Both the position numbers and the translations under genes were made by a program. The notes under the pieces are model-generated. The model was not told the DNA's origin. It worked only from the letters and a program-made list of their open reading frames with translations, and did no database searches. Below are positions 17,493 to 21,704 of a stretch of DNA of 64,000 nt, piece by piece. How positions within the stretch are numbered: the first letter of the stretch is position 1; each line of letters begins with the position of its first letter. Source of the DNA: Candidatus Spongiisociaceae bacterium (GTDB lineage: Bacteria > Actinomycetota > Acidimicrobiia > Spongiisociales > Spongiisociaceae); the NCBI GenBank assembly GCA_965262915.1, contig OZ253564.1, positions 352,001 through 416,000 of the forward strand. The letters run 5' to 3'.

Positions 17493-18371
17493 TTGGCGCA
17501 GGTCGGGCAGCGCCCAGCACACGCGGCGGGCAGGCGGCCGAGGGCGGCACGGCGCTTCTACCGCCACCGAACCGCGGTCTGCTCGCTGACGGTGCTGGTC
17601 CTGATCATCGCCGCGACCGCAGCCGCCGACTGGATCGCTCCATTCAACCCCTCCGAGCAGAACCTCGACCGCATCCTGCAAGCGCCCGGCCGGGAATTCC
17701 TGCTGGGAACCGACACCCTCGGCCGCGACAACCTCAGCCGGATACTGCACGGCGGCCGGGTATCGCTCCTCGTGGAGGGTGCGGTCGCGGCGATCAGCGG
17801 CGTGCTCGGCACTCTGGTCGGCTTGGTCGCCGGTTACTACGGAGGCCGGGTCGACACGCTGCTCATGCGTCTCACGGACACCCTGCTGGCCCTTCCGGCC
17901 CTGATGGTGGTGATCATGGCAGCCCGTATCCTCGGCGACGGGGTGTGGGATGTGGTGCTGGTGCTAGCCGGGATCACCTGGATGGTGCCGGCCCGGATCG
18001 TCCGGGGGAAGGTGCTCTCTCTCAAGCAACGGGAGTTCGTGAAGGCGGCCCGGGCACCGGGCCTGCCGAACGGGCGGATCATGTACCGTCACCTGCTGAC
18101 CAACCTGGTTGGCGAGGTGATGGTGGCGGTCTCGCTGACCGTGGCCGCTGCCATCCTCGCCGAGTCGACGCTCAGTTTCCTCGGGCTGGGCGTGAACCCG
18201 GCTCACACCGCCACGTGGGGCAACATGCTGGGCGGCAACGAGGGATTCGTCACGACCGCGCCCTGGCTCGTATGGGCACCCGGAGTAGCCATCGTGCTCA
18301 CGGCTCTGTGCGTGAACTTCATCGGCGACGGCCTACGCGACTCCCTCGACCCGACCCGGGAGCAGATATGA
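17493..18371 (+). CDS. Peptide ABC transporter permease (DppC/OppC-like)
   Basis: LLGTDTLGRD, REFVKAARA, ESTLSFLGLG. Start codon uncertain. Confidence 0.9.
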   Translation: MAQVGQRPAHAAGRRPRAARRFYRHRTAVCSLTVLVLIIAATAAADWIAPFNPSEQNLDRILQAPGREFLLGTDTLGRDNLSRILHGGRVSLLVEGAVAAISGVLGTLVGLVAGYYGGRVDTLLMRLTDTLLALPALMVVIMAARILGDGVWDVVLVLAGITWMVPARIVRGKVLSLKQREFVKAARAPGLPNGRIMYRHLLTNLVGEVMVAVSLTVAAAILAESTLSFLGLGVNPAHTATWGNMLGGNEGFVTTAPWLVWAPGVAIVLTALCVNFIGDGLRDSLDPTREQI

Positions 18372-19380
18372 ACCCCGCGGATCGCGACAGCACATTCGGT
18401 GCCGGCGCCGCCGAACCGCTGTTGTCGGTGCGCGACCTGCACGTCGAGATCGACACCGAGGACGGCGTGCTCACCGCGGTGAACCGGATGAGCTTCGACC
18501 TCTACGCCGGTGAGGTCCTAGCCATCGTGGGCGAGTCCGGGTGCGGCAAGACCATGACTGCCCTGTCCATACTCGGGCTCCTTCCCCGCAAGGCGGCGCG
18601 TCTGGTACGCGGCGAGGTAAGGCTGGGCGGCGAGGATCTGCTGGCCGCGCTACCGCAACGGATGCGGCAGGTCAGGGGAGCGGAGATCGCCATGATCTTC
18701 CAGGAACCGCTCACGGCACTCAACCCGGTGCAACGGGTCGGTGACCAGATCGCCGAGATGATCCGCACCCACCGACCCGTGCGCCGGTCCGAGGCCCGCC
18801 GCCGCGCCGCCGGGTTACTCGACCGGGTGGGGATACCCGACGCGGCCCGGCGGGCTCGCCGGTACCCGCACGAACTCTCCGGCGGGATGCGCCAGAGGGT
18901 GATGATCGCCATGGCGATCACCTTGGAACCGGCGGTCCTGATCGCCGACGAGCCGACCACCGCGCTCGACGCCACGGTTCAGGCCCAGGTGCTCGAAGTC
19001 CTGTCGGACGTGCAGCGGGGGCTGTCCGGCGCGATGGTCCTGATCACCCACGATATCGGTGTGGTGGCCGACCTCGCCGACCGGGTGGTGGTGATGTACG
19101 CGGGCCGCTCGGTGGAGCAGGGTTCCGTCTACGACGTTTTCGAGCGGCCCCTCCATCCCTACACGGCCGGCCTGCTCGGCGCCGTACCCCGAGTGGACGG
19201 AACGGCCGACCGTCTCAATCCGATCACCGGAACGCCCCCACCCTCATCGTCCTTCCCGATGGATGCGCCTTCGCTCCCCGCTGCCACATGGCCACCGAGA
19301 TCTGCCTGGTGCAGAAGCCGGAACCCCGGCCGTCCACCGGCGAGACCGGGTCGCCGGCCGTTGCCTGCCACCATGCGTAG
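18368..19380 (+). CDS. Peptide ABC transporter ATPase (DppD-like), frameshift near the C-terminus
   Basis: GESGCGKT, LSGGMRQR, LIADEPT. Adding one C at the run 19235-19239 restores GCAFAPRC...VACHHA* ending at TAG 19378-19380. Confidence 0.88.
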
Positions 19381-19411
19381 TCAGGTGCCAGACACCCCAG
19401 GAGCGTAAATG

Positions 19412-20647
19412 TCAAGCTGCGGCTCGGTCGATGGTGGTTCGGTGTGCCCATGCGGTGTGTTCGTTGTAGGGGGTTTGGTGTTTGAGGCAGCCGTGGAGGA
19501 TGCCGACGAGTCGGTTGGCGAGGGCTCGGAGTGCTTGGTGGTGGAGGTCGTCGGCTGCTCGGCGTTTGTCGTAGAAGGCTCGGGCTCCTGGACTGTTCTT
19601 TAGGGAACAGAACGCCCATTGGTCCAGGGCGTCGTAGAGACGCCGGTTACGGACCTGGCGAGCCAGGACAGCGTGCTTGCGGCCTGACGCCACTGTGATG
19701 GGCGACGTGCCGGCGTAGTTCCTGCGAGACTTGGCGCTGGTGTAACGGTCGGGGTCGTCCCCGAACTCACCGAGCGCCCGGGCGCCGAGCACAGTACCGA
19801 GTCCTGGCTGAGACAGGTAGATGTCGGCGTCCGGGTGTTCTCTAAAACGGGTCTCGAGGGTTGCTTGGAGGTCTGCGATCTGGCGGTTGGTTTCCACAAT
19901 GAGTTTCACCAGTGCCCCAACAGTCGCCCCGAAGGCGTCCGCGACCGGCCCCGGCGCGGTGAGATGGCGGGTACGGAGACCTTTCTGTATGCGGCGGGCA
20001 ACCTTGTCGAGGTTGCGTCGCCGTCCGCCCCTCTGTAGCGCTGCTCGGATCTGGGGCAGTGTCAGGCGGGCGCCCAGGATTGGGGTGGGTGCCCGACCGA
20101 GTATGGCCACAGCGTCGCGATGGGCCAGGTCATCGAAGGTTTCCAGCGCTGCGGGATAGTACTCGCGCAGGGCGTTGCGGACTTGGTTGGTGTGACGCGT
20201 CCGAGCCCAGATCAGGTTCTGATGCGTTCTGGCCATGATCTTGATCGCGTCTGATTCGGGGCTGTCACCGGCCACCGAACGATGGTTGTGACGGTCGGTG
20301 CGTACCAAATCAGCTAACACCTTGGCATCACCGCGGTCTGATTTCGCTCCGCCCAGGCTGTGACGGTCCCGGTAGCGGGACACAGCCCTAGGATTGATCG
20401 CATACACCAAATAGCCCGCTGCGATGAGCGCACCCACCCACAGCCCACGATCGGTCTCGATCCCTACCACCACCTCAGCTGCATCCGATGCGTGTTCGGC
20501 GACCAACTCATGGAAGCGGGCTATACCTTGGATCCCTTCCGGGAGATGGGCGAAACCCAGCCGGGTCCCATCCTCGTCCATCAGATACACATCATGGTGG
20601 CCCTCAGCCCAGTCGTTACCCACAAATATCATCCCTTCCTCCTTCAA
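19412..20647 (-). CDS. IS110 transposase / bridge recombinase, intact
   Basis: DEDD RuvC-like motifs (GNDWA, GIET, KSDRGDA), NYAGTSP and ASGRK catalytic-Ser region, ALRALANRL. Confidence 0.95.
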   Translation of the reverse strand: MKEEGMIFVGNDWAEGHHDVYLMDEDGTRLGFAHLPEGIQGIARFHELVAEHASDAAEVVVGIETDRGLWVGALIAAGYLVYAINPRAVSRYRDRHSLGGAKSDRGDAKVLADLVRTDRHNHRSVAGDSPESDAIKIMARTHQNLIWARTRHTNQVRNALREYYPAALETFDDLAHRDAVAILGRAPTPILGARLTLPQIRAALQRGGRRRNLDKVARRIQKGLRTRHLTAPGPVADAFGATVGALVKLIVETNRQIADLQATLETRFREHPDADIYLSQPGLGTVLGARALGEFGDDPDRYTSAKSRRNYAGTSPITVASGRKHAVLARQVRNRRLYDALDQWAFCSLKNSPGARAFYDKRRAADDLHHQALRALANRLVGILHGCLKHQTPYNEHTAWAHRTTIDRAAA

Positions 20648-20684
20648 CGGGGATCGATCCTTGCCGAGCTGTAGAACACGCCTG

Positions 20685-20865
20685 GCGGCGACCTAATGGA
20701 TCAGTGCTCTGTGGCACGCCACCCCATGAGCGCTACAAGCGGCCCTCGCGAACCGGCCGGGGTACGATCTGGCACTAGGAATCAGCGTTCCGGGTGCCAC
20801 CAGTACTCACCGGCCAGCCAGCTCAACCACCACACCCTCCCAGACAAACCAGCAGAAGTGGTGGA
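20685..20865 (-). ncRNA. Predicted bridge RNA of the IS110 element (ends approximate)
   Basis: Target loop guides TGGCACC (20793-20799) and GTGCCAG (20769-20775) around a GGAA/TTCC stem. Donor loop guides TGGGGTG (20720-20726) and CCATTAG (20693-20699) around a GTGC/GCAC stem. Confidence 0.8.
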
Positions 20866-20873
20866 CCCCCATT

Positions 20874-21055
20874 AGGTGCCAGGTGCCAGGTGCCAGGTGC
20901 CAGGTGCCAGGTGCCAGGTGCCAGGTGCCAGGTGCCAGGTGCCAGGTGCCAGGTGCCAGGTGCCAGGTGCCAGGTGCCAGGTGCCAGGTGCCAGGTGCCA
21001 GGTGCCAGGTGCCAGGTGCCAGGTGCCAGGTGTCTGGGGTCAGGTGCCAGGTGTT
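20874..21055 (+). repeat. Heptamer tandem array (AGGTGCC)x22 plus 4 terminal units, three of them degenerate
   Basis: 22 perfect units at 20874-21027, then AGGTGTC TGGGGTC AGGTGCC AGGTGTT. Confidence 0.97.
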
Positions 21056-21098: not shown

Positions 21099-21341
21099 AT
21101 GATGGTTATGGAAGGAATGCTCGCTGCCATGATCGGCCTCGTAGGCGCCCTCCTGAGCGCACTCCTCATCTGGATCCGCTCCGACATCAAGGCCCAGCGC
21201 GTCGAGATGAACTCGGCCCTCGAAGGCATGAGGGCCACGTTGACCGAGCACGGCGAGCGGCTCGCCCGCATCGAGACCACCCTCGGAGCCCCGGCGTCCT
21301 CCCCCGAAACCGCCGCTGCAGAAGCGGTCGTCACCCCCTGA
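21099..21341 (+). CDS. Small TM + coiled-coil protein, paralog 1
   Basis: EGMLAAMIGLVGALLSALLIWIRSDIK...EHGERLARIETTL; near-identical blocks in the next ORF. Confidence 0.7.
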   Translation: MMVMEGMLAAMIGLVGALLSALLIWIRSDIKAQRVEMNSALEGMRATLTEHGERLARIETTLGAPASSPETAAAEAVVTP

Positions 21342-21419: not shown

Positions 21420-21704
21420 GTGTTGGATATAGAAGGAATGCTCGCTGCCATGATCGGTTTCGTGGGTGTGCTGGTGAGCGCACTCCTCATGTGGATCCGC
21501 TCCGACATCAAGTCCATCCGGACAGAGACGAACTCCCGGTTCGACGCCATGGACCGCCGGTTCGACACGGTGGACCGCCGATTCGACACCGTGAACACCA
21601 TCCTGGCCGAGCACGGGCAACGGCTCGCCCGCATCGAGACCGTCCTCAGCGTCCCGGTATCTCCTCCCGAGCAAGCCTCCACGGAACCCGCCGTCGCCGG
21701 CTGA
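21420..21704 (+). CDS. Small TM + coiled-coil protein, paralog 2, with heptad (21-bp) repeats
   Basis: EGMLAAMIGFVGVLVSALLMWIRSDIK...RFDAMDRRFDTVDRRFDTVN...EHGQRLARIETVL. Confidence 0.7.
   Translation: MLDIEGMLAAMIGFVGVLVSALLMWIRSDIKSIRTETNSRFDAMDRRFDTVDRRFDTVNTILAEHGQRLARIETVLSVPVSPPEQASTEPAVAG

Follow-up and report, generated by a model that had tools for sequence, protein, structure and literature searches.

What leads a mobile element to insert at one fixed position within a seven-nucleotide microsatellite? This question is raised by a locus in a 64,000-nucleotide (nt) stretch of the genome of a Candidatus Spongiisociaceae bacterium (assembly GCA_965262915.1, contig OZ253564.1, positions 352,001 to 416,000 of the forward strand; hereafter the window), where an element of the IS110 family of insertion sequences abuts a long (TGGCACC)n array. 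Our analysis indicates that the element is very probably an intact and complete member of the IS110 group that, to the extent that sequence reveals it, works like IS621 of Escherichia coli, i.e., with a predicted bridge RNA, one loop of which would recognize a single period of the microsatellite. The element belongs to a known kind of bridge-RNA element and leaves the known mechanism unchanged. Coordinates below refer to the window unless they are marked as genome positions.

Read on the minus strand, the locus passes from the (TGGCACC)n array through a CT dinucleotide into the left end of the element (AATGGGGGTCC...) and, about 1.48 kb further, from the right end (CTGGGGTGT) through a second CT into GGCACCTGAC and the reverse complement of a TAG stop codon. 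The following features define the element and its target:

19392 to 20873, minus strand: IS110-family element, copy c1, 1482 bp between two CT cores
20874 to 20875, minus strand: left CT core, joining the left half of the target to the left end
19390 to 19391, minus strand: right CT core, joining the right end to the right half of the target
20874 to 21053, minus strand: (TGGCACC)n array, the target, 25.7 units of period 7 (Tandem Repeats Finder)
19412 to 20632, minus strand: recombinase gene, uninterrupted, 406 amino acids from ATG or 411 from a TTG at 20647, with a DEDD RuvC-like domain and a Tnp domain with the SG serine

The left junction reads TGGCAC-CT-AATGGGGG, with the core at 20875-20874, and the right junction reads CTGGGGTGT-CT-GGCACCTGAC, with the core at 19391-19390. 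Both cores lie where an earlier note on this DNA, written from the letters of the window, had placed them, as was found when the minus strand was reread. Beyond the other side of the element (19380-19389) there are one and a half further units. The genome is a single contig of 5.06 Mb with 64.4% G+C, and the whole element, used as a query, matches it at 24 places; full-length copies with 83-100% identity account for 11 of these (c1 to c11). A CT is found at the left junction in all 11 copies and at both junctions in the 10 that have a canonical right end. The target of copies c7 and c9, AGGCTC-CT-ATCA, occurs unoccupied at two further places in the genome, with identical flanks and a single CT, so that the boundaries and the core are fixed independently of any model. 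The earlier note had proposed an empty site with a single CT; this is seen directly for the sister target of c7 and c9, while at the c1 locus the evidence is one weak contig, from the metagenome run X5 (depth 3.7; 27 letters on the shorter side), which joins 19382 to 20874 and represents the array without the element.

The sole long open reading frame (ORF) within the element (19412-20647, minus strand) is open throughout. Its product matches DEDD_Tnp_IS110 (PF01548; 117.2 bits, 7.5e-34) and Transposase_20 (PF02371; 38.3 bits, 1.7e-9), both above the curated cut-offs, as well as the NCBIfam model NF033542, 'IS110 family RNA-guided transposase' (181.6 bits, cut-off 140). The only match in the PDB is the IS621 transposase, 8wt6 (expectation value, E, 1.3e-6). 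In this one pairwise alignment, from which the catalytic residues were judged using the IS621 numbering of PMC11208158, GnDwa/GiDta, ksDrgDA/ktDtvDA and aSG/eSG line up and the glutamate falls in a gapped stretch (gi.Etd / iEat). Pfam, NCBIfam and the structure match thus agree on the family, and the recombinase is intact, as the earlier note had it. At least 8000 relatives are found at E <= 1e-20; the few named ones, 74-75% identical, are labelled Acidimicrobiales or Acidimicrobiia. As a side observation, the sole strong Rfam match is to Ms_AS-4 (RF02464, 'Actinobacteria sRNA') at 19730-19811 on the plus strand (87.6 bits versus a gathering score of 50); it lies antisense within the Transposase_20 part of the recombinase gene and may represent conserved IS110 coding sequence read on the opposite strand.

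The non-coding ends of the element are unequal, 241 nt on the left and 20 nt on the right, and the guide region lies upstream of the recombinase gene. Durrant et al. (2024, PMC11208160) describe a bridge RNA of this layout, in which a 5' hairpin precedes first a target loop, which is variable, and then a donor loop, which is conserved; on its 5' side each guide reads in the same direction as the left half-site, and on its 3' side it is antisense to the core together with the right half-site. The corresponding features predicted in the left end are these:

20679 to 20866, minus strand: predicted bridge RNA with putative ends, consisting of a 5' hairpin (20864-20827), a target-binding stem-loop (20818-20752) and a donor-binding stem-loop (20741-20679)
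20793 to 20799, minus strand: left target guide UGGCACC, the sense of TGGCAC plus the C of the core
20769 to 20775, minus strand: right target guide GUGCCAG, the reverse complement of CT plus GGCAC
20720 to 20726, minus strand: left donor guide UGGGGUG, the sense of the right-end tip TGGGGTG
20693 to 20699, minus strand: right donor guide CCAUUAG, the reverse complement of CT plus AATGG

The fold was derived with MAFFT and RNAalifold from 20 distinct left ends. The consensus has 63 pairs and places the 5' hairpin before two stem-loops with internal loops. In the first of these, a stem GGCCGG.G.GUAC / GUAC.CCCGGCC closes on an inner GGAA/UUCC hairpin, and the target guides form the unpaired sides of the loop; in the second, a stem encloses an internal loop with both donor words and an inner GUGC/GCAC hairpin. 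Loop 1 carries most of the variation among the 20 left ends, and loop 2 is nearly invariant. The earlier note had read the four guide heptamers and the closing and inner stems (GCCGG..GTAC, GGAA/TTCC, GTGC/GCAC) as an IS621-type arrangement; the heptamers are found at exactly those coordinates in the two internal loops, the stems are recovered from the 20 copies, and the order of hairpin, target loop and donor loop, as well as the senses of the guides, follows the cited description of Durrant et al. The folding check that it had suggested was thus run, with thermodynamic and comparative support, and the left-end RNA folded as a single sequence gives z = -2.0. By simple arithmetic, a specified 7-mer is expected about 0.014 times per 230 nt, which makes the presence of four specified 7-mers in the correct loops implausible by chance.

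In loop 2, the guides are complementary to the joined ends of the element (UGGGGUG to TGGGGTG, CCAUUAG to CT-AATGG). Hiraizumi et al. (2024, PMC11208158) define handshake guides, which in each right guide follow immediately 3' of the bases that pair with the core; after strand exchange, they pair with the last bases of the left half of the other duplex. At these positions, the right donor guide is followed by G in 20 of 20 RNAs (20692 in c1), complementary to the C that terminates 26 of 26 left targets in the comparison of related genomes described below, and the right target guide is followed by A in all RNAs (20768 in c1), complementary to the T that terminates the right end.

The 11 copies in the genome form five groups by identity: c1 and c2 (99.4%), c3 to c6 (94.6-97.9%), c8 alone, c7, c9 and c10 (98.5-99.3%), and c11 alone. 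Alignment of their left ends shows a near-invariant scaffold with two short variable patches, which are located at the guide positions of loop 1 and follow the flanks of each copy:

c1 and c2: left guide UGGCACC, right guide GUGCCAG, site ..CAC-CT-GGCAC..
c3 to c6: left guide UGGCACC (CGGCACC in c6), right guide GUGUCAG, site ..CAC-CT-GACAC..
c8: left guide UGGCACC, right guide GUGCUAG, site TGACAC-CT-AGCAC
c7, c9 and c10: left guide AGGCUCCU, right guide UGAUAG, site AGGCTC-CT-ATCA
c11: left guide AUGCUCCU, right guide CAUAG, site ATGCTC-CT-ATGG

Collecting the other genomic copies was a further check proposed in the earlier note. All seven copies with heptamer-type guides (c1-c6 and c8) lie within or at the edge of TGRCACC-type units, and the four copies with other guides occupy other sequences, which match those guides. 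Single letters of the right target guide track the repeat variants (GUGCCAG with GGCAC, GUGUCAG with GACAC, GUGCUAG with AGCAC). The ORF is broken in c6 and c11 and open in the other nine copies (426-447 codons from stop to stop). Copies c1 and c2 differ at 9 positions and sit at different loci, and their 99.4% identity points to recent mobility.

Several altered copies were seen in the same search. The right end of c11 is non-canonical, reading GGGGATGCTC-CT and repeating the left target word. A rearranged c1-type copy at genome 2736776-2737498 (L017 and L013) keeps the element's first 91 nt, broken off directly behind the left-guide word, and its final 349 nt; between these two parts lie about 290 nt of duplicated right flank. 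Of two solo left-end remnants, at genome 5025578-5025604 and 4967433-4967455 (L023 and L024), one lies within an array of heptamers and one in a site of class-D type; both end after the same internal ..CCACCACTT-CT, which suggests recurrent deletion between this internal CT and the right core.

If loop 1 specifies the target, guides and flanks should covary across related genomes, as the earlier note had pointed out. The family search covered 29 genomes including the source genome, and the left end is present in 13 of the 29 and in six of the seven other genomes of the same genus. From these genomes a script retrieved 32 distinct insertions that have a left junction; in 26 of them the right junction is present as well. 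Six rows were left out, namely a second listing of c10 in L011, four insertions whose right junction was not recovered (L030, L031, L052 and L063), and L044, whose right junction was likewise not recovered and whose left flank misfits the left guide and reads as the reverse complement of the class-D right half-site. The related genomes add the following guide and site combinations:

L049, an intact counterpart of c11 with a canonical right end: guides GGAUGCUCCU and AACAUAG, site GGATGCTC-CT-ATGTT
Related-genome class: guides AGGCUCCU and UGUUGAUAG, site AGGCTC-CT-ATCAACA
Related-genome class: guides CACCCUCC or CACUCUCC and AGGGCUAG, site CACCCTC-CT-AGCCCT
Related-genome class: guide AGAUCUAG, site CT-AGATC
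Related-genome class: guide AGCUAG, site CT-AGCT

Over the 26 insertions, the left guide (7 positions) matches its own flank at 5.54 positions on average and the flanks of other guide classes at 3.66, and the right guide (5 positions) matches at 4.31 and 2.20, respectively. When targets were shuffled among insertions, none of 20000 shuffles reached the observed sum of 256 (best shuffle 213); the relatedness of the copies makes these draws non-independent, so that the count should not be read as a probability. Reduced to a single row per guide pair (17 distinct pairs), the data give the same result, with matches at 171 of 204 positions compared to 146 in the best shuffle. The guides of loop 1 therefore follow the flanks, and this covariation over natural copies can be read directly from the aligned insertions, as can the anatomy of the element, its family membership and the complementarity of its guides. 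The exact junction of the left end with ..CAC-CT was absent from a public metagenome contig collection and occurs in just one other species-representative genome; of the two matches among such genomes, one has the left-end context of L039 and the other is a left-end remnant; neither adds a heptamer-class insertion.

The series also contains a control for the DNA strand that each guide reads. In the GACAC lineage, the right guide alone changed, from C to U, and the left guide retains G opposite the A-for-G change. A left-guide G facing T in the bottom strand would form an rG.dT wobble, as opposed to the mismatch of a right-guide C with A in the top strand, so that this asymmetry is predicted by the published strand assignment. 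The check comes from one lineage and counts as one event, and L041, which has C where the bottom strand carries A, speaks against the assignment.

The target itself is abundant. The genome contains 89 arrays of at least three YRRYRCC units, with 472 units in total, and a composition-blind scan for period 7 retained 96 arrays, with TGGCACC as the unit in 36 and TGACACC in 18. The 13-mer TGGCACCTGGCAC occurs 199 times compared to 0.38 expected, which agrees with the proposal that each unit can serve as a site; TGACACCTGACAC is found 69 times. The 89 arrays merge into 58 loci, 33 of which lie within 15 nt of the stop codon of an ORF pointing into the array, compared to a mean of 4 and a maximum of 9 in 200 trials of random placement; this test is crude in that it uses stop-to-stop ORFs of at least 150 codons in place of gene calls. 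The earlier statement that arrays lie just after stop codons agrees with these counts, and at the c1 locus the core lies 10 nt past a TAG:

19378 to 19380, plus strand: TAG stop codon of an OppD-like ATP-binding cassette (ABC) ATPase gene, 10 nt from the insertion core; the protein ends ...VACHHA

We infer that the arrays could serve as an abundant safe harbour for the element. Among the 29 family genomes, (TGRCACC)n arrays are abundant solely in the source genome: three tandem TGRCACC units have 196 matches there, whereas three congeners have 4, 8 and 5 and the other 25 genomes have none, a comparison in which repeats may be under-represented where assemblies are drafts. In two congeners, the orthologous spacer behind the OppD-like gene has no such array, and at the loci orthologous to c1 and c4 the spacers of congeners were too diverged for an exact empty site to be recovered.

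A tandem target has a further consequence for the RNA. Its two half-sites are the same word one period apart, so that the sense left guide is necessarily complementary to the antisense right guide. Partition-function folding gives a guide-to-guide pairing per nucleotide of 0.84 in c1, c3, c4 and c8, compared to 0.00-0.02 for the AGGCTC-CT-ATCA class (class B) and 0.25-0.61 for the remaining RNAs.

One further feature, in the short right end, concerns expression:

19410 to 19415, minus strand: TTGACA within the right end; it shares bases with the stop codon (TGA) of the recombinase gene and is present in every right end listed

The part of Durrant et al. (2024, PMC11208160) that treats expression describes a promoter rebuilt across the junction upon excision. 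A consensus scan found no promoter-like site on the minus strand of the integrated locus, which fits this description, and counting by hand across the circle junction gives TTGACA, 17 nt, and then T-CT-AAT. Transcription, circle formation, the strand assignment of the pairing and present-day activity are given here as a proposed sequence of events. The element would excise as a circle closed at a single CT, the junction of which would place the right-end TTGACA 17 nt upstream of TCTAAT, and the left end would then be transcribed into a bridge RNA of roughly 190-200 nt. The first internal loop of this RNA would pair with the target, the second would pair with the joined ends of the element (TGGGGTG.. 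and CT-AATGG), and the DEDD/Ser recombinase would exchange strands at CT. The target would be one period of the (TGGCACC)n microsatellite and insertions would fall mostly 3' of genes. Because the target is one period, every unit of every array would be a site, and because the arrays mostly lie directly 3' of genes, insertions would rarely disrupt a gene.

A number of observations weigh against this reading of the element. With regard to the RNA, only 2 of the 63 scaffold pairs show a compensatory change; the copies are closely related, so the fold rests on energy and on its likeness to the published layout. No Rfam family matches 20650-20875 at E <= 1. The left guide of the heptamer class has C, not U, at the second core position. 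The right donor guide is CUGCUAG in 4 of the 20 distinct RNAs and CGGUUAG in 1 of 20, facing an unchanged left end, and since the donor ends are invariant, no covariation can be read for the donor guides. CUGCUAG makes two Watson-Crick pairs, two wobble pairs and one mismatch with AATGG. The predicted pairing between guides in the free RNA might hinder binding of the target. With regard to the flanks, the right side matches at 2 of 5 positions in L027, L056 and L060, and the left side at 4 of 7 in L055. With regard to the circle, the -10 box at the junction, TCTAAT, has five of the six letters of TATAAT and lacks the usual A at position 2, and the assembled contigs of four (X1, X3, X5 and X16) of the 24 sequencing runs listed contain no joint of a right end to a left end; the element family is present in several of these data sets.

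Three of the four misfitting flanks look like products of rearrangement. L027 has a left flank of c11 type and a right flank of c10 type, as recombination between adjacent copies arranged like c11 and c10 of the genome would produce, and L055 and L056 lie in inverted orientation at a distance of 5 kb, where in each of them one flank fits the guides and the other does not, as would result from inversion between the two. The misfit of L060 stands unexplained. The variant donor guides are distributed across lineages: CUGCUAG is found in c6, c10, c11 and L055, i.e., in three sub-lineages of the genome and one congener, and CGGUUAG in L052 (columns 177-183 of alignment A1). The candidate explanation that CUGCUAG is matched to a different left end was ruled out, as every left end found starts CT-AATG.

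Before 2024 it was assumed that the protein chooses the site in such elements, in which case the heptamers of the left end would be fragments of microsatellite carried along and not guides. The left end does hold DNA copies of the target half-sites, the rearranged copy at genome 2736776-2737498 breaks just after the left-guide word, and the bridge RNA is predicted from DNA alone. However, the same loop positions switch to unrelated words in copies inserted into unrelated targets (AGGCUCCU/UGAUAG, AUGCUCCU/AACAUAG and CACCCUCC/AGGGCUAG) while the scaffold stays invariant, and the words occupy internal loops in both senses required by the IS621 model, which leaves the choice of site by the protein extremely unlikely. 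It is also conceivable that the direction of cause is reversed and the arrays are a product of the element, its recombinase seeding or expanding units between neighbouring CT cores or carrying flanking units along. Arrays and heptamer-guided copies do co-occur solely in the source genome (196 matches to three TGRCACC units versus 4, 8, 5 and 0), the longest perfect array adjoins c1, and the orthologous intergenic regions of two congeners have no array. We consider this origin of the arrays highly unlikely, in that a copy is found within 300 nt of just 9 of the 89 arrays, an array of equal length (21 units, at genome 1214144) stands without an element, many heptamer units unrelated to the guides also form arrays, and the intergenic spacers of congeners bear heptamer-like repeats of their own.

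The anatomy could also be as we describe it and c1 nevertheless be silent or nearly so, a fixed resident whose RNA has no promoter when integrated and whose target loop is zipped. The lack of a promoter-like minus-strand site in the integrated state points in this direction, as do the predicted pairing of left and right target guides (0.84 versus 0.00-0.02 in class B), the presence of just 7 heptamer-class copies per 472 units, and the broken ORFs of c6 and c11. On the other hand, c1 and c2 sit at different loci with only 9 differences, the ORF and its aligned catalytic motifs are intact, one contig from a related population has no element at the site (a weak point), and a promoter rebuilt only in the circle is normal for the family in the account of Durrant et al. 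(2024, PMC11208160) cited above. A silent c1 is thus possible, albeit unlikely, and we favour a complete element that works like IS621.

The targets of the sister copies extend this interpretation. The c11-type word ATGCTCCTATG occurs 32 times in the genome compared to 1.1 expected; in the example examined, it lies a few bases past the 3' end of a 409-amino-acid ORF with both IS110 Pfam domains, between TTGACA and the end of the repeated sequence. The c7-type site is found some 55 nt upstream of another IS110-family ORF, of 421 amino acids, whose product shares 25% identity with the c1 protein in the region that aligns. The c7/c9/c10 and c11 sub-lineages are thus aimed at the non-coding ends of two other IS110-family elements of the same genome. 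Those elements, which hold the c7/c9/c10 and c11 target words, are located at genome 541900-546300 (L083, 421-amino-acid ORF) and 2257150-2259650 (L082, 409-amino-acid ORF), respectively, and at L083 two inverted copies of the 421-amino-acid element flank an ISL3-family transposase gene.

A more far-reaching interpretation is that the element and the microsatellite are a co-evolving pair, in which the guides walk, pair with each other and gate the RNA, unit numbers change, and sisters are re-aimed at rival IS110 elements. Under such a scenario, a guide of the type that reads repetitive extragenic palindromic (REP) elements, GGGCUAG, may have stepped through GAGCUAG and GUGCUAG to GUGCCAG or GUGUCAG, onto a heptamer repeat specific to the lineage; the tandem target may make the target guides pair and gate the RNA, a CT every 7 bp may let the recombinase alter unit numbers, and the sister lineages may represent RNA-guided warfare between insertion sequences. 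Taken as a whole, we regard this co-evolution as distinctly unlikely.

Irrespective of that scenario, this one genome provides a natural reprogramming series for bridge RNAs, with five sub-lineages whose guides are one to several letters apart and match their sites, and with an internal control for the DNA strand read by each guide. A microsatellite period as target forces complementarity between the guides, which makes the element a design case for bridge recombinases directed against repeats, and the sister lineages provide a case of IS110 elements aimed at other IS110 elements.

A few features of the surroundings may be added. Many of the arrays are inverted pairs around a short core and are hairpin-capable. 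Other heptamer microsatellites are common genome-wide (CGGCAAC, TGACCAC, CGACCAC and others; for example at genome 200592, 2207993, 3594272 and 4316741), and arrays are often adjoined by the motif GAATCAGGGCTAG, which in reverse complement gives the right half-site of the class-D target of copies in congeners. The OppD-like gene is split between two frames: its body follows that of the ORF 17945-19408, and its canonical C-terminus (...LPDGCAFAPRC...VACHHA*) follows another, ending at 19378-19380; the switch, at about 19255-19275 on the plus strand, reflects a frameshift close to a C-run or else an error of assembly. Between the array and a gene for a coenzyme A (CoA)-transferase-like protein are two paralogous small ORFs on the plus strand (21099-21341 and 21420-21704; 80 and 94 amino acids), which start M..EGMLAAMIG and contain ..EHGERLARIET..; the whole interval is about 110 nt in one congener.

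Among known systems, IS621 of E. coli is the closest in kind. As described in PMC11208160 and PMC11208158, it shares with c1 a recombinase of the DEDD and Ser type, the CT core and the handshake positions, a long left end with 5' hairpin, target loop and donor loop, left guides in sense and right guides in antisense, a -35 box in the right end (a candidate one in c1), and a repeated intergenic target. The c1 protein is distant from that of IS621 (E 1.3e-6), its host is an actinobacterium of the Acidimicrobiia, and its system is known here from sequence alone; the target is one 7-bp tandem period, not a REP palindrome, hence the mutually complementary target guides. ISPpu9 and ISPpu10 of Pseudomonas putida, also of the IS110 family, are described in the accounts consulted as likewise using the many identical copies of an intergenic repeat as insertion sites. 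These accounts further report that a hairpin in the target contributes to the specificity of ISPpu10; here many arrays are hairpin-capable, and the c1 array has no listed inverted partner. Some elements of the IS1111 group are aimed at the ends of other mobile elements, as are c7, c9, c10 and c11, with the differences that their guide RNA lies downstream of the gene and that the prey of c7/c9/c10 and c11 are other IS110-family elements. In two IS110 preprints, 'tandem repeat' means tandem copies of the element or its cargo. A search of the literature found no IS110 element aimed at a microsatellite, and a microsatellite period would thus be a target class not found in the papers searched; the supplementary guide and target tables of Durrant et al. 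(2024), outside that search, may include repeat-like targets. Judged from the sequences compared here, this system departs from IS621 in what it targets, in a target loop that is consequently complementary to itself, and in the rich natural series of guides within a single genome.

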